NCBI GenBank assembly: GCA_002502365.1
Contig: DAOJ01000081.1
Coordinates: 562 to 57,045 of the forward strand
Source: Euryarchaeota archaeon UBA106
GTDB lineage: Archaea > Thermoplasmatota > Poseidoniia > Poseidoniales > Thalassarchaeaceae
Length of the DNA: 56,484 nucleotides
Reading direction: 5' to 3'
The notes under the pieces: generated by a model
Database searches by the model: none
What the model was told of the DNA's origin: nothing
Seen by the model: only the letters and a program-made list of their open reading frames with translations
Made by a program: the position numbers and the translations under genes
Shown: piece by piece, positions 25,113 to 56,365 of the stretch
Position numbering within the stretch: position 1 is the first letter of the stretch
Layout of the letters: every line of letters starts with the position of its first letter

Positions 25113-26453
25113 GTGTATCTTATCACCATAGAAGGAGGTGATGGCTCCGGTAAAGGCCTTGCAACAAAGGTGGTTGCAGAGGTACTCGAAAGGGAGTTTT
25201 GTTTCACATCTGTAGAGGTTACCGGTGAGCCACGTCGCGATCATCCTCTCGGTAGATTAGCGATCGATTCAGTAAGGCAAAAAATCCACACCCCTGAGGA
25301 AGAAGCTGGATTTTTTGCCGCAGATCGAGTTGATCATTCCCATGGTTGGATACTCCCTCGATTGGAAGAAGGTAGGATTGTAGTCAGTGAAAGAAACGTT
25401 CATTCCTCCCTAGTTTACCAAGGGATTGTAGGCTCGTTAGGTGTAAATCGTGTAGCACAAATCAACTCTGCGGCTTTAGTTCCAGACCTATGTATTTGGG
25501 TAGATTGTGACCCAGAAGTTGCAATGAAGAGAATTCAATCAGGCACTCTTCGAATGATGTCAGATAAAGCCGAATACTTTGAAACAACAGAATTACAAAA
25601 AGCCATTCGATCGGGTTATGCTTCTTTGCTATCTGGAGAAATTGAAATGCCAACACCATTTGATATGGGTGCAATAATTGGACCAGTTTCTAACGAGACA
25701 ACAGAAAGAGAGTTTCGCAAAAAATTAACTCGTCACATTAGGAAATTCATTCATTCTCATCCTCCTCCTTTGAACGTAGATTCCGAAGCGGTTGAACGTT
25801 TCATGCTAAAGCGATTAATTAAATCAACAAAGGGTCAAACGGTTTTGGATGGCTTGGGTGTTGAACCTGCTAGGACGCTAAATGACTGGTTAGATGGTAA
25901 GGCACCATGGAAGGTACTCAAAGAAGCCCAGCAAGACCATAGTGGAGCTTTGGAATTGATTTCTGAAGATCAAAGAATTTACGTTCCAAAATCAGTTTTA
26001 GCCCACTCGATTTGTTCAATATGTGGGACTTTGGCTTTGATTCCATCTGCCGATGTAAATGAGTTGAGGGAGGCGCAAGGTCCAGTCAGGGCAGTATCGG
26101 ATTCTCACACTCACAAAGTGTTACGTTTCCTCGCTGACAGATCCAACTGGGTTAATCAGCATAAGTCACTATTAGGAAGAGATGCTGCTAGAACCCAATT
26201 AAGAGATGAATCTCATTCTTTTGGAATTCTTTGTTTAGTTCTTTGGCCATTAAGGAAAGTATTGTCTAAATGGATATCAAATAATCCAGACACCCACATT
26301 AGATTTGCAATGGGACAAATTGTCCGTTCTGGTGAACACCCCCGGGCAGTTCGAGACACTATCGAAAGACTTGCAATTTTAGGAAACGGTAATTCCAATA
26401 ATTCTCTTCCAGCAGGTAATAGCGGCCTTGTGAATTGGTGGCAAGGAAATTAA
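25113..26453 (+). CDS. tmk: Thymidylate kinase-like P-loop kinase with about 240-aa unrecognised C-terminal extension
   Basis: GTG start 7 nt after GGAGG. ITIEGGDGSGKG P-loop, AADRVDH (DR motif), VVSERNVHSSLVYQG. Residues about 205-446 match nothing I recognise. Confidence 0.7.
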   Translation: MYLITIEGGDGSGKGLATKVVAEVLEREFCFTSVEVTGEPRRDHPLGRLAIDSVRQKIHTPEEEAGFFAADRVDHSHGWILPRLEEGRIVVSERNVHSSLVYQGIVGSLGVNRVAQINSAALVPDLCIWVDCDPEVAMKRIQSGTLRMMSDKAEYFETTELQKAIRSGYASLLSGEIEMPTPFDMGAIIGPVSNETTEREFRKKLTRHIRKFIHSHPPPLNVDSEAVERFMLKRLIKSTKGQTVLDGLGVEPARTLNDWLDGKAPWKVLKEAQQDHSGALELISEDQRIYVPKSVLAHSICSICGTLALIPSADVNELREAQGPVRAVSDSHTHKVLRFLADRSNWVNQHKSLLGRDAARTQLRDESHSFGILCLVLWPLRKVLSKWISNNPDTHIRFAMGQIVRSGEHPRAVRDTIERLAILGNGNSNNSLPAGNSGLVNWWQGN

Positions 26454-42691: not shown

Positions 42692-43731
42692 GTATCTTGG
42701 ATTTGGATTTTCAATCACTTCTTGCCAAATACGACAAATCGGATATGGCCGGATTTACCAGAAAATTTGTTGATGACCTGAATGCAGCAATATCTGCCGA
42801 GATAGAAATCGAGGCAGACATGGATTGGAGTGGAGTTGTCTGCTTAGGAATGGGCGGTTCTGGAGCAGGGGGTATGTTTCTGTCTACTCTAGCCGATGAT
42901 TCAGGAGGTCTTCCATTTGTAGTTTGGAATAACTATGGTCTACCGTCTTGGTGGGGGCCCGATTGGCTAGTTTTAGCGACATCATATTCGGGCAATACAG
43001 AGGAGACTTTGGATGGTGTAAGCAAAGCTCTGGAAGAAGGAGGGGTTGTGATAGGCATTTGCTCTGGTGGAAATCTAGAAGAGATGCTTTCTGAAAGTGA
43101 AGAATCGATTTGTATAACGGTTCCAAGTGGGCAAATGCCAAGATCGGCATTTGGACATATTTTTGGTAGTCAACTATCAATCTGTTGGGCTCTAGGTATT
43201 CTTCCGAAACCTTCTGATGAACAAATTAACCAAATGATTGGTCGCCTAGCGACAATTTCTGAATCTGCAGATTTAGTTGGTGGTGATGGTAGAGTATCTA
43301 GTATGGCATCAAAATTCTCAGACAAGGAAATCGCCATCGTTTCGGCGAGTGAAATGTCATCGGTCGGTATTCGATTTACCAACCAGATTAATGAGAATTC
43401 GGAGATGTTTTCCCGTCCTGTTGAATTGCCTGAAATGAATCATAATGAGATAGTGGCTTGGAATAGAAACTCATCATCTCAAGCATTGCTATACCTCGCA
43501 AGCCCGCACACTCATCCACGCGTGCGTGCGCGCATGAACTATATGATGGAAAATCTCCAACCGGGTGATTCTTGGTTACTTGATTGCGAGGGTGAAAACC
43601 TACTTGAGAGTCTTCTTTTCGCAGCACACATAACTGATTGGGTAAGTATTGCATTGGCAGTTATGAATGGTATTGACCCATCTGAAATGACTGCAATTGA
43701 TGGCCTCAAAACATATCTTTCCACAGTTTAG
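42688..43731 (+). CDS. Bifunctional phosphoglucose/phosphomannose isomerase (SIS domain)
   Basis: The track ORF opens at 42655. A GTG at 42688 overlaps the nmd3 stop (GTGA). GMGGSGAGG and ATSYSGNTEET motifs. Confidence 0.8.
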   Translation: MSILDLDFQSLLAKYDKSDMAGFTRKFVDDLNAAISAEIEIEADMDWSGVVCLGMGGSGAGGMFLSTLADDSGGLPFVVWNNYGLPSWWGPDWLVLATSYSGNTEETLDGVSKALEEGGVVIGICSGGNLEEMLSESEESICITVPSGQMPRSAFGHIFGSQLSICWALGILPKPSDEQINQMIGRLATISESADLVGGDGRVSSMASKFSDKEIAIVSASEMSSVGIRFTNQINENSEMFSRPVELPEMNHNEIVAWNRNSSSQALLYLASPHTHPRVRARMNYMMENLQPGDSWLLDCEGENLLESLLFAAHITDWVSIALAVMNGIDPSEMTAIDGLKTYLSTV

Positions 43732-44309
43732 TAGAGGTCACCTAGAACCAATCTGGGGTCGGGATAAATTTGCAAAGCCTCTTCTCGATCTCTAGGCGCT
43801 ACAACTCCTGGCATATCATGAGTTTCTGGCTCTTGATATGACAATTGAAAGTGTAGGTGAGGTTCCCAACCACCATTTTCATGATGGGCGCCCATCCAAC
43901 ATATTACATCACCAGAATTAACCTTCTGACCTACCGATTTACCCTCTATTGAAGCCGAATCAAGATGGCCATAAAGTGCCCAAATTTTTGTTCCATCCAA
44001 GATATGCTTGGTAATTACAACGTGACCATAGTCTCCATCGGCTGCATTGTATCCAAAATGAGAGATCTCACCCTCGGCGAATGCCATACAGGGAGTTCCG
44101 ACTGGCGCTCCGATATCTATCCCCATGTGTAGAAAGCGCTCTCCTGAAAATAGTTCAGTTGAATATAATCCCGGCCTCAATTCATCGTACTTCCCAACAC
44201 TATAATCAGTTTTGGGAGGAGTCCAAGTTCCTCCTGATAAATCGAGGACAGTGTAATCTTCTGGTATATCGACAACTGGATGGAAATCGTGAGAGCCCCA
44301 GTCAATCAT
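43728..44309 (-). CDS. M23-family (LytM-type) zinc metallopeptidase, no signal peptide
   Basis: HMGIDIGAPVGTP (HxxxD), GHLD and PHLHFQL (HxH). The N-terminus MIDWGSHDFHPVVD is not hydrophobic. Confidence 0.75.
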   Translation of the reverse strand: MIDWGSHDFHPVVDIPEDYTVLDLSGGTWTPPKTDYSVGKYDELRPGLYSTELFSGERFLHMGIDIGAPVGTPCMAFAEGEISHFGYNAADGDYGHVVITKHILDGTKIWALYGHLDSASIEGKSVGQKVNSGDVICWMGAHHENGGWEPHLHFQLSYQEPETHDMPGVVAPRDREEALQIYPDPRLVLGDLY

Positions 44310-44334: not shown

Positions 44335-45597
44335 TCATTCCTCCTCTTCTACGCTACCTGTGTTCTCTGGAATTCGAGCAGTCCCATCAACTGTCTCAAT
44401 AACTTCCAATTTTCTTGCAGTATTGTCAGCCACTCGGAGATTTTCAAGCCTACGGCCAGCAGGAATAACTCTTCGATCGTAGGAGCCAACTGCTGAATTG
44501 TAAGCATTAGTTGCGGTATTTAGTCCGCGTCCAATCTTTGCTAAATCCTCTCCAAATTTCGCAGAACGCTCGTATAATTCTCGAGCGGCCTGCTGAATTT
44601 CTTGCGCATTCTCAGCCATCGATTGTTGTTGCCAGTATACGCTAACCGTTCGTAATAATCCGAGCAATTCTACAGGAGTTGTAATTAGGATATTTTTCCT
44701 GAAAGCGTACTCTTGCAGAGTTGGATCAATTTCGAATGCTGCTGCAAGTATTGGAGGTGCGGGAATGTACATGACCGTGAAATCAGAACCACCCATTAAA
44801 CTGGGATAATCTCTTTTCACAAGAGCATCGATGTGAACTTTCAGAGATTTCGCATGCTCTTGCATTTTCTTTTTCCTAGCATCAGGGTCTTCGAGGTCGA
44901 GGCCATCCCAATAAGCTGCTAGAGGTACCTTAGCATCAATCGGAATGTTTCCACCGTCTGGAATTTTAGCGACCATATCGACTCGACCACCACCTGCGCC
45001 AGAAGCTAAAGTGACCTCAACATCAAAATCACAATGTTCAGTCATTCCAGCCGACTCTGCTACATTTCTGAGTGAAATTTGCCCCCAGTCTCCTCTAGAT
45101 TTGCTAGACCCTCTTAATGCAGTCGAGAGTTTGACATTGGTATCTCGCAAATCAGTAGTTTGTTTGCTCAGTCCTTCGACGGTCCGCTTCAACCCCTGGT
45201 AAGCTCCCTCGCGTTCCTTCTCCATCTTGTCTGTCGATGCTTGCAATTTCTCCAAACTATCCTTGATTGGAGTCACTAAGTCCGCAACCTCCTTTCGCCG
45301 AGCATCATGATCCTTTTCAGTCTCAATTTTTTGCGCATCAAACCTTTCTCCAGCAAGTTGTAGAAGATTTACGGATGCTTTTTCATTTGCTTCGGTGGCA
45401 AAATTCCTCATCTCGGCCCTGAGTAATTCCATCGATTTAGTATGTTCTTCAGACATCACGTTTACGGAGACTTCAGCCTGTGCTAAAGCGGATTTCATTG
45501 CAAATAATTCAGCATTCATTTTCTGTTTGGATAACAGCCATCCAATGACGACTCCCAAAACAAGTCCGCCGACAAGATACGTGATTTCCAACAACAT
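44335..45597 (-). CDS. rmuC: DNA recombination protein RmuC
   Basis: N-terminal TM, a long coiled-coil, then GDWGQISLRNVAESAGMTEHCDF...VDMVAKIPDGGNIPIDAKVPL...DFTVMYIP, which is the nuclease-like RmuC core. Confidence 0.85.
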   Translation of the reverse strand: MLLEITYLVGGLVLGVVIGWLLSKQKMNAELFAMKSALAQAEVSVNVMSEEHTKSMELLRAEMRNFATEANEKASVNLLQLAGERFDAQKIETEKDHDARRKEVADLVTPIKDSLEKLQASTDKMEKEREGAYQGLKRTVEGLSKQTTDLRDTNVKLSTALRGSSKSRGDWGQISLRNVAESAGMTEHCDFDVEVTLASGAGGGRVDMVAKIPDGGNIPIDAKVPLAAYWDGLDLEDPDARKKKMQEHAKSLKVHIDALVKRDYPSLMGGSDFTVMYIPAPPILAAAFEIDPTLQEYAFRKNILITTPVELLGLLRTVSVYWQQQSMAENAQEIQQAARELYERSAKFGEDLAKIGRGLNTATNAYNSAVGSYDRRVIPAGRRLENLRVADNTARKLEVIETVDGTARIPENTGSVEEEE

Positions 45598-45710: not shown

Positions 45711-46811
45711 ATGGATTCCTACGGGAGGGTGCGCTGTGCAATTCTCGGCGCAACAGGAATAGTCGCCCAACGGTTCTTTCAGAGACTTCAGTTTCATCCT
45801 TGGCTCGAACCGGTGGCAGTAGTCGGCTCTCCAGAAACCGCGGGAACTTCTCACGATGATTGCTTATGGAGTCTCGACGAAGAAAGACCTCCTCCCTCTG
45901 GACTAACAATTGGGGGATTGGAAAACATTCCTTCATTGATTGAGGATTTTAGAAATTTAGGTGTTCGGATTATTTTCTCAGCACTTCCCGATGAACCGGC
46001 CGAAAGGGTAGAGCGAAATTTGGCTGCTGCAGGTTTTCTGGTAGTGTCTCATGCACAGATCCATAGATTATTCCCTAATATTCCCTTGATTGTTCCTGAA
46101 GTAAATTTTAGGGATTTAAAATTACTAGAAAAGCAATTTGATACGGCTGATGGCAGACTCATTTCGTGCAGTAATTGTACAGTTGCTCCAATAGCAATTA
46201 CACTCGCTCCACTCATGAAAATTTGTAGTATATCCTCAGTTAGAATAGCCACTGAACAAGCACTTTCAGGCGGAGGGCGAAAATTACTTGCGAAGGCACA
46301 TTCTGGAGAAGTAATTGCTAGTGAAATCCCTGGAGAGGCTGAGTCTGTAGTAAACGAATTAACTAAGATTCTATCCTCGGATTTTCCTATTGAAGCTGAA
46401 TGTAAGAGAGTAACTCGAGACCATGGGCACTATGCTAGAATAGAAGTCGAATTCGAAGATTCAATTAGTGCTCACCAAGTTATTCATTCTTGGCAAGAGT
46501 CTACTACACGCGGCCAGGAATTGAACCTTCCATCGGCTCCCAGTAGGCCGATTGTCTTTGTTGATGGAGAATTACATCACGACCATCGTTGGGCCGGTGT
46601 AGAGGTTGCTGATCACCCTGGACAAGATCTGAAGGCCGCAATGTCAGTAGCGGTAGGTGAGGTAGAGGTCGAAGGCTCAAATCTGAGATATTCGACAATG
46701 GCTGATAACACAATTCGTGGCGCAGCAGGTTACTCAGTTTTACTAGTTGAACAATTGTTAGCGGACGGGCTTCTTCATGACAATAACACCATACTAGCAG
46801 GGGATTTCTGA
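45711..46811 (+). CDS. asd: Aspartate-semialdehyde dehydrogenase
   Basis: AILGATGIVAQRF (NAD(P) loop), active-site SCSNCTVAP, and C-terminal NTIRGAAG. Confidence 0.85.
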   Translation: MDSYGRVRCAILGATGIVAQRFFQRLQFHPWLEPVAVVGSPETAGTSHDDCLWSLDEERPPPSGLTIGGLENIPSLIEDFRNLGVRIIFSALPDEPAERVERNLAAAGFLVVSHAQIHRLFPNIPLIVPEVNFRDLKLLEKQFDTADGRLISCSNCTVAPIAITLAPLMKICSISSVRIATEQALSGGGRKLLAKAHSGEVIASEIPGEAESVVNELTKILSSDFPIEAECKRVTRDHGHYARIEVEFEDSISAHQVIHSWQESTTRGQELNLPSAPSRPIVFVDGELHHDHRWAGVEVADHPGQDLKAAMSVAVGEVEVEGSNLRYSTMADNTIRGAAGYSVLLVEQLLADGLLHDNNTILAGDF

Positions 46812-46847
46812 CCGCACACGCCAATAGGCTGACCTCCATCGGAGTTC

Positions 46848-47462
46848 GTGCGACAACGGCAACTAGCCATGCTGCTTTCCTCTCTTCCTGCTCATCCCTG
46901 TGGAAGGCTTGAGTTAGAACAATATTCTACGCCGGGAGATATAGCAGCATCTTGGTTAAGTCAAATAGCAACATTTGGCGATATGACTTCTGATTCAACT
47001 ATTGTAGACCTAGGTGCTGGAAACGGGGTGCTTGGAATAGGCGCTGCTCTGATGGGAATAGAACAAGTGCTTTTGATTGAATTGGATGAAGATGCCTGTA
47101 ACAGCGCCTTCCAATCGATCGAACAGGCGGGTGTTACAGAAAATGTCGAGATTGTGATGAAAAATGTCGATGAGAATTTAGATCTATCCGGTGTAGATTT
47201 GATAATTTCTAACCCGCCTTGGGGAACACAGGTCGCTAAATCAGATCGCCCTTTTTTTGATACAGTCGTTCGTTCTAATGCCATTTGTCACCTTATGCAC
47301 AGTGCCAAAGCAACTCATATTGAGCCTTATTTTGAATCCAAAGGATGGACCGTTAACCGATATTGGGAAACTGAATTTCCTCTCCCTGCGGTCTATGCTC
47401 ACCACTCTAGTCGTCGAGGAAGGACAAAGGTTGCATTCTGGAGATTAAAGCCTCCTGAATAA
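46848..47462 (+). CDS. Class I SAM-dependent methyltransferase with NPPW motif (METTL5 / COG2263-like N6-adenine RNA methylase)
   Basis: GTG start after GGAG. VDLGAGNGVLGIGA (motif I) and IISNPPWGTQ (motif IV). Confidence 0.7.
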   Translation: MRQRQLAMLLSSLPAHPCGRLELEQYSTPGDIAASWLSQIATFGDMTSDSTIVDLGAGNGVLGIGAALMGIEQVLLIELDEDACNSAFQSIEQAGVTENVEIVMKNVDENLDLSGVDLIISNPPWGTQVAKSDRPFFDTVVRSNAICHLMHSAKATHIEPYFESKGWTVNRYWETEFPLPAVYAHHSSRRGRTKVAFWRLKPPE

Positions 47463-47481
47463 TTGATTTTATTTTCAATTA

Positions 47482-47498
47482 GCCGTGCTACGCACGGC
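47482..47498 (+). terminator. Perfect hairpin between the methyltransferase and csl4
   Basis: After TTGATTTTATTTTCAATT comes GCCGTGC-tac-GCACGGC (7-bp stem, 3-nt loop). Confidence 0.35.
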
Positions 47499-47536
47499 CG
47501 GACCGTTCATAGGGAGTAGTTCGGTCGCCGGCCACG

Positions 47537-48805
47537 ATGAGTGCTACAACTGGGGACTTTGTCACACCAGGAAATCAAGTAGAAGTGCCATCAGGCACCG
47601 CAATTGGTTCCGGACTTTCAGAGACCGATGTTGGTGCAATTGCACTGGTCAGTGGGACGATAATTTCGGATGGGGAGATAATCTCGATAAAATCAAATCG
47701 TCCCAATACCAATTCTCCAGAAATTGGAGATGAGGTTATCGCAGAAGTTGTCAAATTAATGCCTAAAGTGGCAATGATTCGTATTTTACACACTGAAAAA
47801 GAAGGTGGACACAGAGACTTGATTGCTGACGATTTATTCGCGGATATCTTCGTTACTGAAATTGTCGATAGATTCCTACCTTCACCAGGGGATGCAATGC
47901 GAACTAGGGATTTGATTCGAGCTAGAATAACACAATTGGAACCTAACTTGAAAGCGAGTACACGCGGCTCCCCTGAATTAGGAGTCTTATGGGCAATTTG
48001 TCCCGCTTGTGGAAATGAATTGACAACATCTGGGAAGAAACAAGATTTCAATGTGACATGTAATAGATGCGATTATTCTGGATACAGAGCATTATCCAAT
48101 GGTTTTGGCCACGGTCATACTCTCGGTGAGGATATACAGGATTTGAATAGGGCAGGGGAAAGATGGTCTGCGGAAGCTGAAGGCAATCTTGGTCATGAAG
48201 GTGCTAGACCGTATCTTTCTCCTATGGCTGACCATCGTCGTGGGCCTAACCACAAGGCTTCACCCGCAGCAGTGAGGATGCGTTCTGCAATTACCGGAAA
48301 AGGAGGCTCAGGCGGCCGTCAACGCATCAAGCATGAGTGTAAGTGTACACTTTGTGGAACCGATACTACAGTTCCATTTGAGCCCACACCAGGTAAGCCA
48401 ATCCGATGCAAGGATTGCATGGATAAGGTGAATGACGGTAAGGCAACCAAGGAAGAACTCGCAGCAGAAAGAGAAGTTCTTACCAAAGCTCGTTCACAGG
48501 CAGCAGAGGCAGCGGGAATCAAACTCTTTGTTGCAAGACTTTCCTTTGATGCGAGTGAGGAAGACGTCAGGAATCTATTTTCCACCCACGGGGAAATAAC
48601 AGAATGCAGCATTGCAAAGGACAGAGACACAGGAAAGTCTCGAGGATTTGCTTTCGTTAAATTTGCTAGTCGGAAAGCCGGTGAAAAGGCGATCAAGGAA
48701 CTTGATGGAGCCGAAATTCATGGAAGAAAAATTAGCGTTCAAGAATCTAATGATGGCGGCGATCGACGCCGTGGAAAAGGAAATCGAAATCGCAATCGCC
48801 GATAG
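47537..48805 (+). CDS. csl4: Exosome cap subunit Csl4 fused to a CxxC-x17-CxxC zinc knuckle, an RRM domain and an RG-rich tail
   Basis: N-terminus FVTPGNQV...; S1-like core IGDEVIAEVVKLMPKVAMIRIL...FADIFVTEI...GDAMRTRDLIRARI; Zn ribbon LGVLWAICPACGNEL...VTCNRCDYSG. Then CKCTLCGTDTTVPFEPTPGKPIRCKDC (48338-48430). RRM at 48518-48750 with RNP-2 LFVARL and RNP-1 RGFAFVKF. Tail GGDRRRGKGNRNRNRR. Confidence 0.8.
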   Translation: MSATTGDFVTPGNQVEVPSGTAIGSGLSETDVGAIALVSGTIISDGEIISIKSNRPNTNSPEIGDEVIAEVVKLMPKVAMIRILHTEKEGGHRDLIADDLFADIFVTEIVDRFLPSPGDAMRTRDLIRARITQLEPNLKASTRGSPELGVLWAICPACGNELTTSGKKQDFNVTCNRCDYSGYRALSNGFGHGHTLGEDIQDLNRAGERWSAEAEGNLGHEGARPYLSPMADHRRGPNHKASPAAVRMRSAITGKGGSGGRQRIKHECKCTLCGTDTTVPFEPTPGKPIRCKDCMDKVNDGKATKEELAAEREVLTKARSQAAEAAGIKLFVARLSFDASEEDVRNLFSTHGEITECSIAKDRDTGKSRGFAFVKFASRKAGEKAIKELDGAEIHGRKISVQESNDGGDRRRGKGNRNRNRR

Positions 48806-48831
48806 AGGATAATTTCCCAATATATCGACTC

Positions 48832-50667
48832 TTGACTAGCGAAGTCGTGAAGACCAAACAGCAATTCGAACACTCGAGGGTTTGGATGGAAGGCTGGTTG
48901 GTCCTTGATGGATATGAGGATGAGCCCGCTGCTTTTGGGGTTCCAAATTATCTTGGATTCCATATCAGATATATCTGTGGAGTGCTTGAATCCAGAGGGT
49001 TAGAATACACATATATGACAATTGATGAGTGGAGGCTGCAACATAAACAAAAACTGACCAATTCCTCGGATAGAGAAATACTGAAAAAACAACTCTCCGA
49101 ACTTGACGGTGCTGTAGTTTTAGCAGGTGCAATAGTACCTGGTAAGTACGTTCGCGGAACTCCTATTTCACGTAGAGAATTGGATGAATTTCTTTCGATA
49201 TTTCCAAGTGAGCAACCAGTTCTCACAGGTGGCTGGGCAATTCGTCATTGGCGTTATGATGGCTGGATGCCCCTGCGAACTGAATTATTTTGCGCAGTTC
49301 AGGATACAGATGCCACCTTGGACTATTTCCTAAGCACAGGGGAGTGGTCTCACAAGCGAAGAACAAGTGACCAGTGGAATACTTGGGCGAAAGCAGGAGC
49401 CGAAGGAAAATGTGTCACAAATCATCCCGATTTAATCACCGAAGATGGTCGTCCTGGACCCCTCACTTATGAGGTTGAACTGTATCAAGGCTGTGTGAGG
49501 TACAAACGGGGTTGCAAATTCTGTATTGAGCCAAAGAAAGGAATTCCTATTTTTAGGGACGAAAATGATGTAATTACTGAAATTACCACGGCTCTGGACA
49601 ATGGAGTAAATCACGTCAGAATCGGAGGCGCCACTGACATCTATACCTACAAGGCCGAAGGTGTTGTAGAATTAGAATACCCAATCCCTGATCCAGAACC
49701 GATTGCCAAAGTGCTACATGGATTAAGGGAAGATGAAAGATTGGACATACTGCATGTCGATAATGCAAATCCTTCGATTATTGCCGAGAATTTAGAACCC
49801 GCATCTGAAATAACTAGAACTTTGGTTTCTACTTTATCTGATGGAGCAGTACTCTCATTTGGACTCGAATCGGCTGACCCGCTGGTTCATCAGGAAAATT
49901 GGCTTAATTGCAATTCGGCACAACTCAAGATTGCTATTCGTCACATCAATGAATATGGTAGAGAACGTGGTCGACGAGGACTGCCGAAATTATTGCCAGG
50001 GCTCAATTTCATTGCCGGCTTAAATGGAGAAACAGAGAGCTCCTATGGGATCAATATGCAATTACTTGATAGCCTTCGATCAGAAGGTCTATGGCTCCGC
50101 CGAATAAACATCAGACAGGTCGAAGGATTAGGGTTCCAAGAAATCCCTCAAGATACATTTCAAGAATTCAAGAATAGTGTGCGAGAGGAAATTGACAAAC
50201 CACTGTTAAAAGAAATGTTTCCAATCGGAACTGAACTCAAAGGAGTCTGGTGGGAAGCCCATGATGATCGAATCAGAAGACCTGAACAGGTTTTGCAAAA
50301 AATCCACAGAGATGCTTCGATTTATGGCAGTTCAGGAATTACTTTTGGCAGACAGATTGGTGCCTATCCAATATTGGTAGGTACACCATATCAAATCCCT
50401 CTAGAAACAAAATCTGACATCATAGTAACAGGGCATGGAATGAGAAGCATAAGTGGAGTTGAATCCGGATTATCGATTAACACCGCCACTCAATCTCAGC
50501 TTGAAGCAATACCTGGAATCGGTAGCAAAGCAGCATGGCGTATTGTCTCAAATCGGGCAAAGTCATCTAGAAATTCTCATGAGCCTGCTTTCTCAGACGT
50601 AGAAGAGGCATTAACAGAAGTTGGAGTACAGTCCTACGGACTGGCCTCAAAGGTCCTGAAGCTATGA
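48832..50667 (+). CDS. Radical SAM enzyme with C-terminal helix-hairpin-helix (COG1031-like)
   Basis: The track ORF starts at a TTG at 48832; the ATG at 48886 (MEGWLVLDGYEDEPAAFGVPNY) is likelier. Cys triad GCVRYKRGCKFC. C-terminal HhH QLEAIPGIGSKAAWRIV. The stop overlaps the next gene (ATGA). Confidence 0.75.
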   Translation: MTSEVVKTKQQFEHSRVWMEGWLVLDGYEDEPAAFGVPNYLGFHIRYICGVLESRGLEYTYMTIDEWRLQHKQKLTNSSDREILKKQLSELDGAVVLAGAIVPGKYVRGTPISRRELDEFLSIFPSEQPVLTGGWAIRHWRYDGWMPLRTELFCAVQDTDATLDYFLSTGEWSHKRRTSDQWNTWAKAGAEGKCVTNHPDLITEDGRPGPLTYEVELYQGCVRYKRGCKFCIEPKKGIPIFRDENDVITEITTALDNGVNHVRIGGATDIYTYKAEGVVELEYPIPDPEPIAKVLHGLREDERLDILHVDNANPSIIAENLEPASEITRTLVSTLSDGAVLSFGLESADPLVHQENWLNCNSAQLKIAIRHINEYGRERGRRGLPKLLPGLNFIAGLNGETESSYGINMQLLDSLRSEGLWLRRINIRQVEGLGFQEIPQDTFQEFKNSVREEIDKPLLKEMFPIGTELKGVWWEAHDDRIRRPEQVLQKIHRDASIYGSSGITFGRQIGAYPILVGTPYQIPLETKSDIIVTGHGMRSISGVESGLSINTATQSQLEAIPGIGSKAAWRIVSNRAKSSRNSHEPAFSDVEEALTEVGVQSYGLASKVLKL

Positions 50668-53600
50668 TGCAACCCGTTCAGGCAGAGGTAATAGTCATAA
50701 TCTCTGCAAGTACGCCGAGACATATGCAGAATACTGAATCGAAGAGAATCATTGCTCTGGGGGTTTGCTTTTTATTTCTGGCCGTACCAATATGGGGTTT
50801 TCTTTCTGATACAGATACAGAAATTGTAGATTTGAGTGAAACTAAGGAACAACACTTCACGAATACCGGTTCTTCGTCAATTAACATCAATGGTTCAGAA
50901 GCGAGTTCAATTTTTTCAAATTCAGTATTGGATGTGACAAATACCGGCCCATTGGTTATTCTCAATAATGGAACTTCAGTGAAATGGTCAGAAGGAAATC
51001 CAATCTACACTGAGGGTTCGTTAATTTCAACCTCAGGTAGGTGTTCCATATTGTCAAATTATTCAGTTTTCTGTTCCGGCTCAAATAATTACGGACAGCT
51101 TGGTTTGGGAAATAATGGCATAACAGAAGGATATGTTTCTTTAACCCAAGAAGCAATTGTTGTGGATGAAGGAAAAGACCACACCTGCGCCATATTAATT
51201 GACGCTAGCCTTTGGTGCTGGGGTCGAAATCATGAAGGGCAAATCGGAGACAATACTACTGTAAATCGAGCCTCGCCGGTGCAGATTGACCTTGGGTCCG
51301 GAATTGATGCAGTTGCAGTTTCAGCAGGTGATGACTACACTTGTGCATTAACCCACACAGGAGATGTCATGTGTTGGGGGCTGAATGTAAGAGGGCAACT
51401 TGGAGATGGAACCACCAATAATTCACTCGTTCCCACCTTATCTAATCACTCCACAAACCTTCGAGCAGTATCCCTTATCACAGCAGGAAGAACCACTTGT
51501 GTTTTATTCCAAAACGGTTCTGTTGGCTGTTGGGGAAGTAAATTTACTGTTTTCTCAGATAATGGCCCTGTAACTTCTAATCTTCACCTAATAAATCTTG
51601 GAGATAATGTGACTGCAAATATGATTGATGGTGTTGGTGACCATACCTGTGTCGTCACCAACAATGGATCAATGCAATGTTGGGGGATAAATACCAATGG
51701 ACAGCTAGGGGATGGAACCTGTTCCTCTACCATAGAAACTAATTGTACAGCGGAGAACATTTTTCCCGGAGAAGGAAATTCTCCAGTTAATGTTAATTTT
51801 AGTGCTGGATTAACTGTTATTTCAGCGGCTACTGGCCCCCACTCAACCTGTGTCTTAATGTCTGATGATTCCTTGCAATGCTGGGGCGCTCAATCGGGTG
51901 AATTTGATAATACAACAAAATCAAAAATCAACCCCTACCAATTGTTATTTACAGATGGCACCAATGTCGCTTACTCAGATCAAGATTTAGATGGGGACGG
52001 TATTCGCAATATCTTCGATACCCATCAGTCTGGAGATACAGATGGTGATGGCACTCTAGATTCTGATGATAGCGACCCTAACAATCCGGCTAGGTGGTTA
52101 GATTGCTCCGAGGGAAAATTTGGAAGGCTTGCGTGTAATGATACAGATCCAGGCCATTACTCTACTGGAGGCTTAATTCAAATTGAATGCGAGCCAGGAA
52201 CTTTCCAACCATTTATTGCTCAATCGAACTGTTTTGATTCCTCTGCGGGCTATTATGTTGATTTATTTGCCTCAGTATCACAAACTCCCTGCGAAAGTGG
52301 ACATTACAATATGGAACTAGGTCAATCATCCTGTATTGCCTCTGCCCCAGGTTCCTATGTTAGTCCAAATATGGGTGATGCTGGCGATACGAGCGATACA
52401 GCAGTACCATTGTCTTTGATGAGTGCTAATTACACGGGTAATTTCGAAGGTAATTCGGACAGTACCGACGTATTTTTCCTAAATTTATCAAGGAATAATT
52501 GGTTCATAGCAAATCTAACTTCTCCAGCTGGAAAAAACTTTGATATCGAATTATTGAATACATCATTCCATGTGATTGACTTTTCCAATACAAGTAACAC
52601 TCATGATGAGGTCTCGACAATTTCTTCAAACAATTCGACAGGAATATACTTTATTCGGATAACATATTCCTCTGGATTCAACGGCTCAGACGATTACAAT
52701 TTAGTTATTGAAGTGAAATCTACAGATGAAAACTCAACATCAATAGGTTCTACATCTATTCACGTTAACGCCGAGCAGGCACTTTATTCCACACCCTGTG
52801 CTCCAGGTTCCTGGCAAGATCAGGAAGCTTCATCCTCCTGTAACCAAGCCTCACCAGGGCATTATGTATACGGCTCTGGAGCAACTTCTCAGAATCAATG
52901 TGCTGCTGGTTATTTCCAAACTAATTCTGGACAAACCGGTTGTACGATTGCCTCTTTAGGTTTTTACGTGCCTCAAGCGGGTTCTACAAATCAAATTGCC
53001 GCTGGTGTAGGGCATTATGTTAATTCAACAGGTTCATCCGGACAAACCTCCTGTTCAATAGGAACTTATCAACCATCATCTGCCCAAACAACATGTTTTG
53101 CGGCAAACCCTGGGTATTATGTTCCTACAACTGGCCAGGCGAATCAAACAATTTGTAGCGTAGGGACTTATCAGCCTGATTCAGGTCAAAGGATTTGTTT
53201 GGAAGCAGATGCTGGACATTATGTTCCAATTCAAGGTGCAACGAATCAAACCCAATGCTATCTGGGAACCTTCCAGCCCTATGGTGGACAGTGGTCGTGC
53301 ACGGATGCTGCCCCGGGACACTTTGTTGCCACGAATGCTTCAATTTCTCAGACTGCATGTTCACAAGGAGAATATCAACCATTAAGTGGTCAGACTAGTT
53401 GTCTTCAAACATCTTCTGGGTATTATACAAATATACCCGGTTCAGCAAATCAACAACCATGTCTTCCAGGTTACTATCAGCCTCTAACCGGTCAATCAGG
53501 TTGTAATGGGGCTGAACCTGGTTTTTACGTTGAAAACCAAGCCTCAATTTCTCAAACAGCATGCTTAGCTGGTTCATATAATCCATTTGCTCTTGCTACT

Positions 53601-55826
53601 CAAGCCAGCGATTGTATGCTCGCAGATTTCGGTCATTTTGTTCCTTTACCCGGGTCTATTGGACAAATAGAATGCAATCCAGGTAATTTTTCTGCAAATT
53701 TAGGACAAATTACGTGCGACTCAGCCGAGCCTGGTTATTTCGTCCCAAGCTCAGGGGCAGACGCCCAAATACCATGTTCTATTGGTACATGGCAAGGTAG
53801 TTATGGTGCAACCAGTTGTGATTTTTCTTCACCTGGATTTTACGTAGACACTACAGCGGCTTCGCTCCAAACTGCCTGCAATGCTGGAACCTTCAACCAA
53901 AATAGTGGTTCGAACAACTCTGCAGACTGTCTTACAGCAGACCCTGGAAACTATGTACCTAACCCAGGATCCTCGGAACAAATTTTGTGTACTGCAGGAA
54001 CCTATCAACCTGCACCCGGACAATCTAACTGTATAACTGCTGATTTTGGATATCATGTTCCAGCCGAAGGAGCAACAGGCCAGATTGGCTGCTTAATGGG
54101 CTCTTATCAAGCAAATCGAGGAGGCACTGATTGCGTTCTTGCTGAACCAGGTTACTATGTTGACTCTCATTTTGCCTCATCACAAACTGCTTGTTTAGCG
54201 GGAACTTACCTTCCATCAAGTGGTTCAACTTCCTCAAACGATTGCATAGATGCAGATCGAGGATACTTTGTTGCAGAAAATGGTGCTGACTCACAAGAGG
54301 CATGTAATATTGGCACTTACCAACCAAATGAAGGAAGCTCAATTTGTTTAATTGCGGAACCTGGACATTACGTAGACACACAAGCCTCCTCTACTCAAAC
54401 AGCTTGTGAGGCAGGAACATTCAATTCTGATTCAGGTTCCAATAATCAGTTCGCTTGTTTAGATTCAGAATTGGGTTATTATGTTCCTGAATCTGGATCT
54501 GTAAATCAAATTGAATGTGAAGTAGGTAGTTACCAAAATCTCAAGAAACAGACCGAATGTAAATTTGCTAGCCTAGGATTTTTCGTAAATTCCACCGCAG
54601 CGAAATCGCAAATACCCGCGCCAATTAATTTCTACATAGACACCGAAGGTGCTACAGAACCACTACCTTGTCCACAAGGAACAATCACATTGGTCGAGGG
54701 CGCGGATAATGTTGAAGATTGCCGAGAGGATTATGACGGAGACAATTTACCGAATTTTTTGGATGATGATGATGATAATGATGGGGTACTTGACTACACT
54801 GATTTATGCGATTATGGACTAATGAATTGGATTAGTACAAGATCTAACGATTGGGATCAAGATGGCTGCGAGGATAGTGCAGAAGATAGCGATGACGATA
54901 ATGACGGTTTTTCCGATGCAGAAGATCATCTCCCCCTAGACCCAACAGAATGGTTGGACACTGATAGCGATGGAATCGGAGATAATGCTGATACAGATGA
55001 TGATGGCGATGGAATTCCCGACCTTCAAGAAAGTAAGATTGGATTGGACCCACTTATTCCTGATTTCGATGGGGATGGTACATGTGATGGCCCAAATAAT
55101 GTTACCGGAGTTTGTACGGCAGGCCCCGATGCCTTCCCATTCAACCCCGACGAGCAGAAGGACACTGACGGAGATGGAACCGGTGACAATTCAGATGATT
55201 TCCCTACGTTGAAGTTTTACCAAAATTATGGTCAAGCAGCAGTTCACCTGTTTATCGGTTTAATTATTCTTGGAGTAATCGGATTTAGCGTACGAATGGG
55301 TATTGGTAGTCGACAGGAGAAATCTGAGGCAGATGATAGCACTCATGAGGTTCGACAGATAGGTGGAGTGGAAGTTAGAGTATCGGCAGAGGACCGTATG
55401 TTTTCTGAAAATACCCAAGCCCAAGTCGAAAGTGAGCCTACACCTCAAACAGAAGAGCCCTCCTCCCCTACAATGTTCGACTTACAAGTAGCAGAACAGA
55501 CAGTTACAGAATCAATGGATGAACCGATTACTGAACAAGTTGGAATGGATTTGACTCATGAAGCTGAGGTGCAGGAAGAGGCACTTACGGAATCTCAAGA
55601 CACCTCACAACCAACTGAAGTCTTCGATGAGTTAGACCTTGAGAGTCTTCTAGCAGCTACACCGCCTCCGGTTCCGAAAATAGAAGCACCCCCTGATGCT
55701 CAAGTCAATGAACACGGGCAGAAAGTTTGGAGGGATGACAATGGGGATGTTTGGGTACAGAACCCAGATGGAAGTCTACTCAAGCACAACGTCTTGACAG
55801 GTACTTGGGAACCTTACGAACAGTGA
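50664..55826 (+). CDS. Giant surface protein: N-terminal anchor, RCC1-repeat propeller, TSP3-like Ca repeats, ephrin-receptor-like Cys repeats, PPC domain, second TSP3 block, TM anchor, acidic cytoplasmic tail
   Basis: RCC1 motifs NNYGQLGLGN, HTCAIL..SLWCWGRNHEGQIGD, VMCWGLNVRGQLGDG and MQCWGINTNGQLGDG (about nt 51021-51893). DLDGDGIRNIFD / DTDGDGTLDSDDSDPNN. PPC-like DSTDVFFLNL...GIYFIRITYS...DDYNLVIEV (52373-52718). TM LFIGLIILGVIGFSV. Confidence 0.85.
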   Translation: MMQPVQAEVIVIISASTPRHMQNTESKRIIALGVCFLFLAVPIWGFLSDTDTEIVDLSETKEQHFTNTGSSSININGSEASSIFSNSVLDVTNTGPLVILNNGTSVKWSEGNPIYTEGSLISTSGRCSILSNYSVFCSGSNNYGQLGLGNNGITEGYVSLTQEAIVVDEGKDHTCAILIDASLWCWGRNHEGQIGDNTTVNRASPVQIDLGSGIDAVAVSAGDDYTCALTHTGDVMCWGLNVRGQLGDGTTNNSLVPTLSNHSTNLRAVSLITAGRTTCVLFQNGSVGCWGSKFTVFSDNGPVTSNLHLINLGDNVTANMIDGVGDHTCVVTNNGSMQCWGINTNGQLGDGTCSSTIETNCTAENIFPGEGNSPVNVNFSAGLTVISAATGPHSTCVLMSDDSLQCWGAQSGEFDNTTKSKINPYQLLFTDGTNVAYSDQDLDGDGIRNIFDTHQSGDTDGDGTLDSDDSDPNNPARWLDCSEGKFGRLACNDTDPGHYSTGGLIQIECEPGTFQPFIAQSNCFDSSAGYYVDLFASVSQTPCESGHYNMELGQSSCIASAPGSYVSPNMGDAGDTSDTAVPLSLMSANYTGNFEGNSDSTDVFFLNLSRNNWFIANLTSPAGKNFDIELLNTSFHVIDFSNTSNTHDEVSTISSNNSTGIYFIRITYSSGFNGSDDYNLVIEVKSTDENSTSIGSTSIHVNAEQALYSTPCAPGSWQDQEASSSCNQASPGHYVYGSGATSQNQCAAGYFQTNSGQTGCTIASLGFYVPQAGSTNQIAAGVGHYVNSTGSSGQTSCSIGTYQPSSAQTTCFAANPGYYVPTTGQANQTICSVGTYQPDSGQRICLEADAGHYVPIQGATNQTQCYLGTFQPYGGQWSCTDAAPGHFVATNASISQTACSQGEYQPLSGQTSCLQTSSGYYTNIPGSANQQPCLPGYYQPLTGQSGCNGAEPGFYVENQASISQTACLAGSYNPFALATQASDCMLADFGHFVPLPGSIGQIECNPGNFSANLGQITCDSAEPGYFVPSSGADAQIPCSIGTWQGSYGATSCDFSSPGFYVDTTAASLQTACNAGTFNQNSGSNNSADCLTADPGNYVPNPGSSEQILCTAGTYQPAPGQSNCITADFGYHVPAEGATGQIGCLMGSYQANRGGTDCVLAEPGYYVDSHFASSQTACLAGTYLPSSGSTSSNDCIDADRGYFVAENGADSQEACNIGTYQPNEGSSICLIAEPGHYVDTQASSTQTACEAGTFNSDSGSNNQFACLDSELGYYVPESGSVNQIECEVGSYQNLKKQTECKFASLGFFVNSTAAKSQIPAPINFYIDTEGATEPLPCPQGTITLVEGADNVEDCREDYDGDNLPNFLDDDDDNDGVLDYTDLCDYGLMNWISTRSNDWDQDGCEDSAEDSDDDNDGFSDAEDHLPLDPTEWLDTDSDGIGDNADTDDDGDGIPDLQESKIGLDPLIPDFDGDGTCDGPNNVTGVCTAGPDAFPFNPDEQKDTDGDGTGDNSDDFPTLKFYQNYGQAAVHLFIGLIILGVIGFSVRMGIGSRQEKSEADDSTHEVRQIGGVEVRVSAEDRMFSENTQAQVESEPTPQTEEPSSPTMFDLQVAEQTVTESMDEPITEQVGMDLTHEAEVQEEALTESQDTSQPTEVFDELDLESLLAATPPPVPKIEAPPDAQVNEHGQKVWRDDNGDVWVQNPDGSLLKHNVLTGTWEPYEQ
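52797..54722 (+). repeat. About 18 tandem 32-36-aa Cys repeats (protein level), ephrin-receptor-like / GCC2_GCC3-like; 3 more copies at 52104-52364
   Basis: Recurring unit C-x2-G-x-[YFW]-Q-x5-8-C-x3-4-[PF]G-x-[YF]-V-x8-10-Q-x2, for example CSIGTYQPSSAQTTCFAANPGYYVPTTGQANQTI and CSVGTYQPDSGQRICLEADAGHYVPIQGATNQTQ. Confidence 0.7.
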
Positions 55827-55874: not shown

Positions 55875-55906
55875 GCACCTAATGCGGTTGTTCGAAGGTG
55901 AGTCAA

Positions 55907-56365
55907 ATGACAGACAACGACAACGAATTTATCCAAACTATCGAAGCCAGCGCCCACTGCGACGGTCCTTGTGGAGTCTACGATCCTGCAAGTGCAAGAA
56001 TAGCCGCTGAGGCAGTTCAATCGATGACCAAAAAGATGGTGACACTTGCAGAAAACCATGGCTCAGACTGTGGAACTGCAAGCTACATCAACACAATGAG
56101 TCGCTACGCTACAATCAAGGAAGAAGAAGCCCAAAAGTGCAAGGACGAATTATTGGTACTTTGGACTGACTACTTCAAGCCTCAACATCTAGAATCAATC
56201 CCTGACCTACACGACACTTTCTGGCAGGCAGCAAAACTCTGCTCAGCATGTAAGGTAGAAGTCTCGGAGCAACATGCTCAGGAACTAATGGATGCAGTTG
56301 AAGCAATCCACCACATGTTCTGGGGAACCAAGGGCCGTGAAGACCCATGGATTCGCGCTTCCTAA
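55907..56365 (+). CDS. sodN: Nickel superoxide dismutase precursor
   Basis: The track ORF opens at a GTG at 55898; the ATG at 55907 follows GAAGGTGAG. The propeptide MTDNDNEFIQTIEASA is followed by HCDGPCGVYDPA (Ni-hook; canonical HCDLPCGVYDPA). 4-helix-bundle length. Confidence 0.9.
   Translation: MTDNDNEFIQTIEASAHCDGPCGVYDPASARIAAEAVQSMTKKMVTLAENHGSDCGTASYINTMSRYATIKEEEAQKCKDELLVLWTDYFKPQHLESIPDLHDTFWQAAKLCSACKVEVSEQHAQELMDAVEAIHHMFWGTKGREDPWIRAS

Follow-up and report, generated by a model that had tools for sequence, protein, structure and literature searches.

A Csl4 exosome cap subunit carrying a zinc knuckle and an RNA recognition motif in a Marine Group II archaeon

Why would a core subunit of the archaeal exosome carry, in the same reading frame, a second half built of RNA-binding modules? 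The question is raised by a gene on a 56,484-nucleotide stretch of the genome of Euryarchaeota archaeon UBA106 (contig DAOJ01000081.1, positions 562 to 57,045; the whole stretch is here called the window), a Marine Group II (MGII) archaeon of the family Thalassarchaeaceae (MGIIb). The gene lies at positions 47537 to 48805 of the plus strand and is a single open reading frame (ORF) of 422 amino acids plus stop, with zero internal stops; its start is the first ATG past an in-frame TAG at 47510 to 47512. The initial annotation, made from the letters of the sequence, had read it as the exosome cap protein Csl4 continuing without a stop into a zinc knuckle, an RNA recognition motif (RRM), and a tail, and the ORF bears out this continuity. 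We hypothesize, with a probability of roughly 70%, that the gene encodes the single Csl4 of this archaeon and that the modules tethered to it capture RNA at the exosome cap.

The N-terminal half was predicted to have the full archaeal Csl4 layout over residues 1 to about 190, and both profile comparisons and the predicted fold agree. It comprises an N-terminal domain (residues 1 to 58; 47537 to 47710) with a V-x-PG motif and with ECR1_N matches in orthologues, an S1-like barrel (residues 59 to 148; 47711 to 47980) that aligns by profile to Archaeoglobus fulgidus and human Csl4 and has fold matches to 2ba1_A and eukaryotic Csl4 chains, and a zinc-ribbon domain (residues 149 to 193; 47981 to 48115) that contains C155, C158, C175, and C178 and ends at G-F-G-x-G. 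The NCBIfam Csl4 model NF034126 matched the window protein over profile positions 1 to 178 of 180 (E = 2.4e-23), and residues 1 to 200 alone matched the A. fulgidus Csl4 structure 2ba1_A along the entire length (E = 1e-9). A profile of all architectural types of the protein (described below) matched 2ba1_A in the PDB with E = 8.5e-29 (positions 4 to 188 against residues 2 to 177 of 179) and human CSL4 end to end (E = 5e-11), and its alignment ended exactly at G-F-G-x-G, the terminus of an ordinary Csl4.

A first AlphaFold model, built from 22 close sequences, was weak over the Csl4 half; a second, built from a 50-sequence alignment mixing architectural types, had a mean predicted local distance difference test (pLDDT) value of 77.8. 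In a Foldseek search of the PDB with the predicted fold, 2ba1_A ranked first (E = 5.9e-15; template modeling [TM] score, 0.65), and ranks 2 to 18 were Csl4 chains from the exosomes of yeast, human, and C. thermophilum. Residues P11 and G12 of the V-x-PG motif are invariant across all architectural types, as are the N-terminal domain motifs common to Csl4 and Rrp4, and all 22 window-type orthologues compared keep the four cysteines of the zinc ribbon (CPAC...CNRC). In a set of 79 distinct species-level sequences, on which all mean identities given here were measured, the S1 barrel has 70% mean pairwise identity, with 39% of its columns conserved at the level of at least 95%. By every sequence and fold criterion bar one curated score that is a near miss, the window protein is a Csl4.

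The C-terminal extension is equally recognizable. The zinc knuckle (CTLCGTDTTVPFEPTPGKPIRCKDC; residues 263 to 297; 48323 to 48427) has the exact CxxC-x17-CxxC spacing initially described, which we checked on the sequence, and this treble-clef module scored over the cut-offs of both TIGR04272 (40.3 bits versus 36) and Pfam zf_Tbcl_2 (PF23477; E = 9.6e-10; 38.4 bits versus 27), with pLDDT values of 81 to 85 over residues 271 to 300. A connecting helix (residues 298 to 327; 48428 to 48517; DSSP helix, 305 to 326) leads to the RRM (residues 328 to 405; 48518 to 48751), which is as canonical as had been proposed: it matched Pfam RRM_1 (PF00076) with E = 1.7e-20 and 73 bits, far over the cut-off of 20.7, carries LFVARL as RNP-2 and RGFAFVKF as RNP-1, and keeps L330, F331, G370, F371, A372, and F373 invariant among the 22 window-type orthologues. 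In the model, its secondary structure follows the order E-H-E-E-H-E, and it superposes on the RRMs of CIRBP, HuR, and TIA-1 with TM scores of 0.89 to 0.94 and root mean square deviations of 0.7 to 1.4 Å; with CIRBP it shares 41% identity at 0.7 Å. Its mean pairwise identity is 62%, with 24% of columns at the level of at least 95%. The protein ends in a basic tail (GGDRRRGKGNRNRNRR; residues 406 to 422; 48752 to 48802) that is rich in Arg and Asn. It had been called RGG-like, a description that we do not retain, as it holds one RG only and lacks RGG/RG repeats. The tails of orthologues are short and R-rich and vary in both length and sequence (45% mean pairwise identity and no column at the level of at least 95%).

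The fusion is conserved across Marine Group II. A full-length search returned 289 clusters, and the best 120 of these, with identity down to 58%, were all about 420 to 440 amino acids long, carried the marks of both RRM and knuckle, and were named Poseidoniales, Thalassarchaeum, or Marine Group II by their sources; clusters at 90% identity with the same architecture number in the hundreds. A genome scan of GTDB species representatives, for which a profile of five sequences was used because the alignment of all types was too diverse, found a relative encoded in 176, and the best 80 of these 176 were all MGIIb-like, including single-cell genomes. A survey for a stop or frameshift between the Csl4 and RRM parts found none: in 80 of 83 related loci, the frame is uninterrupted (408 to 446 amino acids), with exactly one knuckle and one RNP-1 each, and the remaining three are truncated at contig ends. 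One continuous frame was likewise seen in independent ENA, NCBI, JGI, Logan, and Tara assemblies and in single-cell genomes, and for an orthologue 58% identical to the window protein, the independent ENA, NCBI, and JGI assemblies agree on the neighbors.

Is this the only Csl4 of the organism, and does the organism have an exosome for it to cap? A published MGIIb genome answers for a close relative. In Supplementary Table S3 of PMC9723583, SIMO Bin 19-2 (genus O1; 82 to 92% complete; redundancy below 0.6%) has consecutive genes for SDO1, Rrp4 (K03679), Rrp41 (K11600), and Rrp42 (K12589) on one contig and, on another, ASD, the COG2263 methylase, a "Csl4", the COG1031 helix-hairpin-helix (HhH) radical-SAM protein, and a giant RCC1-like protein, an order that equals that of window positions 45711 to 55826. 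That "Csl4" (1,270 bp; K07573; arCOG00676) has a Pfam RRM match of 2.7e-21 (PMC9723583). In this genome, which carries the same locus, the two ring subunits whose presence the initial annotation had demanded for a Csl4 assignment are thus found together with Rrp4. COG1096 and "Csl4" each occur once among the 1,251 genes listed for this 82 to 92% complete genome, and the fused gene is therefore its sole Csl4. The label "csl4_1" suggested a second copy, which we rejected since the numbering spans several genomes and the genome has a single COG1096. The table also lists DnaG, two beta-CASP nucleases, and a Hel308-type helicase, and metatranscriptome coverage is non-zero for all of these as well as for the SDO1, Rrp4, ring, and fused csl4 genes, which shows transcription in the sea; the paper itself does not discuss the fusion (PMC9723583). 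More broadly, records of Rrp41 and Rrp42 exist for 46 of 49 archaeal lineage clusters (PMC7414124), and exactly three clades are known to lack an exosome (PMC7144898).

How the extension varies across lineages emerged from an exhaustive search that used the Csl4 part only, combined with domain scans and source names. Ordinary Csl4s of about 190 residues were found at about 24 to 31% identity, and long relatives at 34 to 55%; the nearest plain Csl4s are at most 31% identical, and the named ones among them come from other phyla. MGIIb (Thalassarchaeaceae) proteins have one knuckle and one RRM. MGIIa (Poseidoniaceae) proteins and those of some unplaced Thermoplasmatota have two RRMs and no knuckle and end in a conserved acidic motif; a lineage found on a 3.0-Mb contig (protein P0125) has two knuckles and a long RGG-type repeat without an RRM; and one small group has a single RRM. 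Among the best 150 cluster representatives of the exhaustive search, RRM or knuckle additions occurred only in the long relatives of this clade, of which 10 were scanned, and 10 Csl4s of odd length from elsewhere showed no recognizable extra RNA-binding domain when scanned. Every architectural type lies directly downstream of the same methylase gene (with a 920-bp gap in the two-knuckle locus), and the one-RRM and two-RRM types also lie directly upstream of the same radical-SAM gene. This shared locus, together with a shared core following the zinc ribbon, indicates that these genes are positional orthologues that swapped their C-terminal modules without leaving the locus. As all of the swapped-in modules are of RNA-binding type and the aromatic residues of the RNP motifs are invariant, RNA binding appears to be the selected property.

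Some of these relatives have features of their own. The acidic end motif, S/K-R-E-x-x-A-x-x-E-E-G, occurs in two-RRM, single-RRM, and two-knuckle relatives (P0122, P0128, P0129, P0132, P0134, P0138, P0139, P0133, and P0125) and is absent from the window type; it looks like a short docking motif. In one two-RRM lineage (P0138), two of the four cysteines of the zinc ribbon have been lost (AVCSNSG...VCHTSG), with the other parts of the Csl4 core retained. With the two-RRM profile, the next-best matches after archaeal Csl4 relatives were eukaryotic poly(A)-binding proteins (E of about 1e-60 to 1e-70), a hint from sequence similarity that the tandem RRMs may be poly(A)-binding protein-like. The two-RRM and two-knuckle forms exceed the NCBI Csl4 cut-off and are therefore named Csl4 in databases, whereas window-type proteins are mostly labeled "hypothetical" or "CxxC-x17-CxxC domain-containing". 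Given these labels and a sub-threshold score, MGIIb genomes can seem to lack Csl4.

The archaeal cap binds RNA and feeds the ring, DnaG joins it via Csl4, and the C-terminal domain of Csl4 is a docking site for aRNase J (PMC7144898); the MGII extension begins exactly at this C-terminal, partner-docking end. If the fused protein caps the exosome, its Csl4 core would dock on the Rrp41/Rrp42 ring in the usual way, and, on a flexible tether of about 40 residues, the knuckle, RRM, and basic tail would range over the surroundings of the S1 entry pore. There they may bind single-stranded RNA with little preference for sequence and thereby raise the local RNA concentration at the pore, and the cap would carry its own substrate-capturing adaptor in cis.

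Several observations weigh against RNA capture at the cap. The window protein scored 82.9 bits with NF034126 and did not reach the cut-off of 90 bits; its positional orthologues P0382 (100.2 bits) and P0125 (96.7 bits) exceed it, and the lower score is a near miss caused by divergence, with no feature missing. The arrangement of the domains in the model is uncertain (predicted TM score, 0.46). Binding of the window protein to the ring is inferred, and the ring genes are unlinked to the csl4 locus: no RNase PH domain was found in Pfam scans of 31 of the 42 window ORFs of at least 150 amino acids, a tblastn search with the PDB-validated S. solfataricus Rrp41 found no match in the window and 83 loci (1.24 Mb), and no ring gene lies within 10 kb on either side of the locus in any architectural type. 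Past the left end of the window, a look-up found only Cdc6 and S6e and no ring gene. When metagenomes were scanned with an Rrp41 alignment of three sequences, only P. abyssi-like genes (63 to 95% identity) and no MGII ring gene were found, and a scan of viral contigs for Rrp41 had no match. The presence of the ring rests on one published bin (82 to 92% complete) and an indirect lineage count. In addition, RRMs can also bind proteins, so that RNA capture is not proven, and DnaG is still encoded, so that the extension is no simple replacement of the RNA-binding partner held by Csl4.

The segment joining the two halves gives a further reason to look beyond RNA. It had been described as a basic linker, yet residues 186 to 240 are the most conserved stretch of the protein (76% mean pairwise identity, with 58% of columns at the level of at least 95%), and only residues 241 to 262 (48257 to 48322), a low-complexity spacer of Gly and Arg, are variable filler (44% and no such column). 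The first few residues of the conserved stretch are the normal Csl4 C terminus, and its clade-specific core spans residues 194 to about 240. R184 and W210 are invariant across all architectural types, and LN..G.RW, E215, and D232 are nearly so. Residues 194 to 220 (48116 to 48196; core, LNR-G-x-RWS-x-AE) are predicted to form a structured add-on to the Csl4 body, given pLDDT values in the second model of 80 to 91 for residues 181 to 210 and 70 for 211 to 220. Residues 221 to 240 (48197 to 48256) hold a near-invariant motif, E-G-A-R-P-Y-L-S-P-x-A-D-x-R-R-G-x-x-H, and are a candidate docking peptide; pLDDT values are largely below 50 over residues 221 to 262, including this ARPYLSP-AD-RRG motif, and are below 50 at 221 to 240, 241 to 246, and 254 to 262. 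A junction conserved beyond the RNA-binding modules argues for a second interaction besides RNA binding, and the motif at 221 to 240 would most likely dock a partner protein or a neighboring subunit.

Taken further, these features could mean that the extension serves chiefly to dock or couple the cap and not to catch RNA in general, with residues 194 to 240, and possibly the RRM as a protein-binding surface, tying it to another machine. Candidate partners would be mature or precursor ribosomes, either neighboring gene product (the METTL5-like rRNA methylase or the radical-SAM enzyme), or a helicase or nuclease; in that case, rRNA maturation or cotranslational decay would be organized around the MGII Csl4 as a hub. 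The most conserved part of the protein is neither the RRM nor the knuckle, it is kept in every type while the downstream modules swap, and its second portion combines invariance with low model confidence, as is typical of docking peptides; the order of methylase, Csl4, and radical-SAM genes is fixed across families, NMD3 lies near the locus, the two-RRM type has a further conserved acidic C-terminal motif, and the C-terminal domain of Csl4 is already known as a protein-docking site (PMC7144898). Nevertheless, the RNA-contacting aromatics of RNP-1 and RNP-2 are invariant, three separate nucleic acid-binding elements (knuckle, RRM, and basic tail) are stacked in the extension, and the modules swapped in are all of the RNA-binding type, and we therefore regard docking as the main function as unlikely. 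Docking and RNA capture are not mutually exclusive.

It is more improbable still that the protein acts off the ring, as a free multidomain RNA chaperone or regulator of the cold shock or Rbp-like kind that has kept the Csl4 fold and lost the cap role. Such a role would fit the score of the window type just below the Csl4 equivalog cut-off, the name "cold-inducible RNA-binding protein" that some sources give to members, the distance of the ring genes, and Rbp_regulator as the strongest NCBIfam match by E-value (82.4 bits, under its cut-off of 100 bits). However, it would leave a genome that keeps Rrp4, Rrp41, and Rrp42 without any other COG1096 gene, and the N-terminal domain motifs of Csl4 and Rrp4 are invariant in all types. 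Lack of linkage is also usual in ordinary archaea, as neither Csl4 nor the methylase was found within 6 kb on either side of Rrp41 in 80 Rrp41-centered loci from other archaea. Finally, an artefactual fusion, whether arising from a frameshift, from a chimeric assembly join, or from the misreading of two neighboring genes as a single one, is practically excluded by the intact frame in related loci, hundreds of 90%-identity clusters, single-cell genomes, and independent assemblies, and by a junction that is the most conserved part of the protein.

Returning to RNA capture at the cap as the preferred reading, we tentatively extend it to the evolution of the group, an extension that is doubtful enough to be offered as speculation. 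Adaptor-guided exosome targeting might have evolved independently in Marine Group II by placing the adaptor in the cap itself; the modules would set lineage-specific substrate preferences, and residues 194 to 240 might constitute a docking site not described before, linking the exosome to a partner machine, e.g., the pre-ribosome and the adjacent METTL5-like methylase.

Directly 5' of the start codon, 39 nucleotides at 47498 to 47536 on the plus strand (CCGGACCGTTCATAGG...GTCG...) form a noncoding element specific to this gene. Nucleotide-level conservation of these positions extends to MGIIb loci with proteins only 58 to 88% identical; the conserved element, at −39 to −9 from the start codon, keeps its distance from the ATG in almost every MGIIb locus, and a 1-nucleotide indel between clades indicates that it is not coding. 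TTCATA, at about −30 to −25, is at the place expected of a TATA box for a leaderless mRNA. The element was also found 5' of one two-RRM lineage and was not found 5' of Poseidoniaceae or two-knuckle genes. A general promoter motif of the organism was rejected because the window contains the exact motif only once, with near matches at chance level. Some clades only have a perfect 7-bp hairpin, GCCGTGC-tac-GCACGGC, at 47484 to 47500. A structured RNA leader with covarying hairpins was likewise rejected, since hairpin offsets differ by clade, an Rfam search of the element had no match, and RNAalifold found no consensus RNA structure in the upstream region. The element resembles a promoter or operator dedicated to this gene, or else a linear binding site, and could possibly be a feedback site of the Csl4 protein itself. 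Some database entries (P0060, P0067, and P0119; upstream regions L027 to L039) have a 20-residue N-terminal extension (MSLRLNPAGPFIG...) that is this conserved element translated from a nonconserved ATG (CTG in sister genomes); their starts are probably miscalled.

The surroundings of the gene had been described as a compact RNA-centered neighborhood, which stands for the upstream side only. The upstream neighbor (46848 to 47462, plus strand) is a METTL5-like methyltransferase of COG2263, as first proposed, with matches to PH1948 (1wy7; E = 1.7e-23), Ta1320 (1ne2), and human METTL5 (E = 1.8e-15). The downstream neighbor (48832 to 50667, plus strand) is a radical-SAM protein with a C-terminal HhH region, of COG1031/arCOG01359, a family of unknown function; no curated NCBIfam model matched it. 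Its radical-SAM motif is C-x6-C-x2-C (CVRYKRGCKFC) versus the usual C-x3-C-x2-C, and its listed start, a TTG, is probably too far upstream, as orthologues have 576 to 592 amino acids versus 611 here. It stays adjoining csl4 in both MGIIa and MGIIb.

Other genes of the window are worth recording. At 50664 to 55826 lies a gene, overlapping the radical-SAM stop by 4 bp at its start, for a 1,720-amino-acid protein that combines RCC1 repeats and many Cys-rich repeats of ephrin receptor-like type with an acidic region rich in D and a membrane anchor at the C terminus; other MGIIb genomes also have a giant protein of this kind after the locus. On the minus strand, an RmuC-family protein (44335 to 45597; E = 2e-82) and an M23 peptidase (43728 to 44309) represent typically bacterial families, in an arrangement conserved in related MGII loci. 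A nickel superoxide dismutase is encoded at 55898 to 56365 (Sod_Ni; E = 1.7e-47), and its exact protein sequence was not on record in a large assembly collection. A 446-amino-acid ORF at 25113 to 26453 has a thymidylate kinase domain at residues 6 to 173 only, and its remaining approximately 270 residues had no Pfam match.

Marine Group II is among the most abundant archaea of the surface ocean. Ordinary archaeal cap subunits bind RNA with little selectivity, how the exosome chooses its substrates is still open, and its known helpers, DnaG and others, are separate proteins that have been studied in few thermophiles. Our literature searches brought up no description of an RRM on an archaeal cap subunit, in agreement with the initial annotation, which knew of none. 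The fusion is apparently new to the literature and differs from every described Csl4 by its covalent RNA-binding modules. MGII families have exchanged RNA-binding domains while keeping a more conserved junction, and their forms are thus a natural domain-swap set for testing accessory RNA binders at the exosome entrance; the conserved junction motif, itself uncharacterized, probably marks a new interaction.

How, then, does the fused protein compare with known systems? It shares its N-terminal domain, S1 barrel, and four-Cys zinc ribbon with archaeal Csl4 (COG1096/arCOG00676/K07573; 2BA1 and 3M7N from A. fulgidus). Ordinary archaeal Csl4s are about 180 to 200 amino acids long, as had been stated, and those that we found end at G-F-G-x-G, whereas the MGIIb protein adds about 230 residues. 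The Rbp-type or CIRBP-like single-RRM proteins of bacteria and organelles have a similar RRM, followed by a basic tail, but they are small and free-standing, whereas the MGIIb RRM belongs to an exosome subunit as its C-terminal module. In eukaryotes, the adaptor complexes NEXT (ZCCHC8 and RBM7) and TRAMP (with the knuckles of Air1/2) bring single-stranded RNA to the exosome; their modules are separate proteins that act via the Mtr4 helicase. A zinc knuckle and an RRM in both suggest convergence, by likeness of module type only, and we regard this as analogy and not as homology of assemblies: the MGIIb modules are fused to a core cap subunit with no helicase involved, and the knuckle is a CxxC-x17-CxxC treble clef rather than a CCHC knuckle. 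The likeness to DnaG lies in an extra RNA-binding element on the Csl4 side of the cap (PMC7144898). However, DnaG is a separate protein of the Toprim/primase fold, whereas the MGII binders have unrelated folds and are covalent parts of Csl4, and as DnaG is still encoded in MGIIb, the MGII extension is an addition to that arrangement and not a replacement of it.

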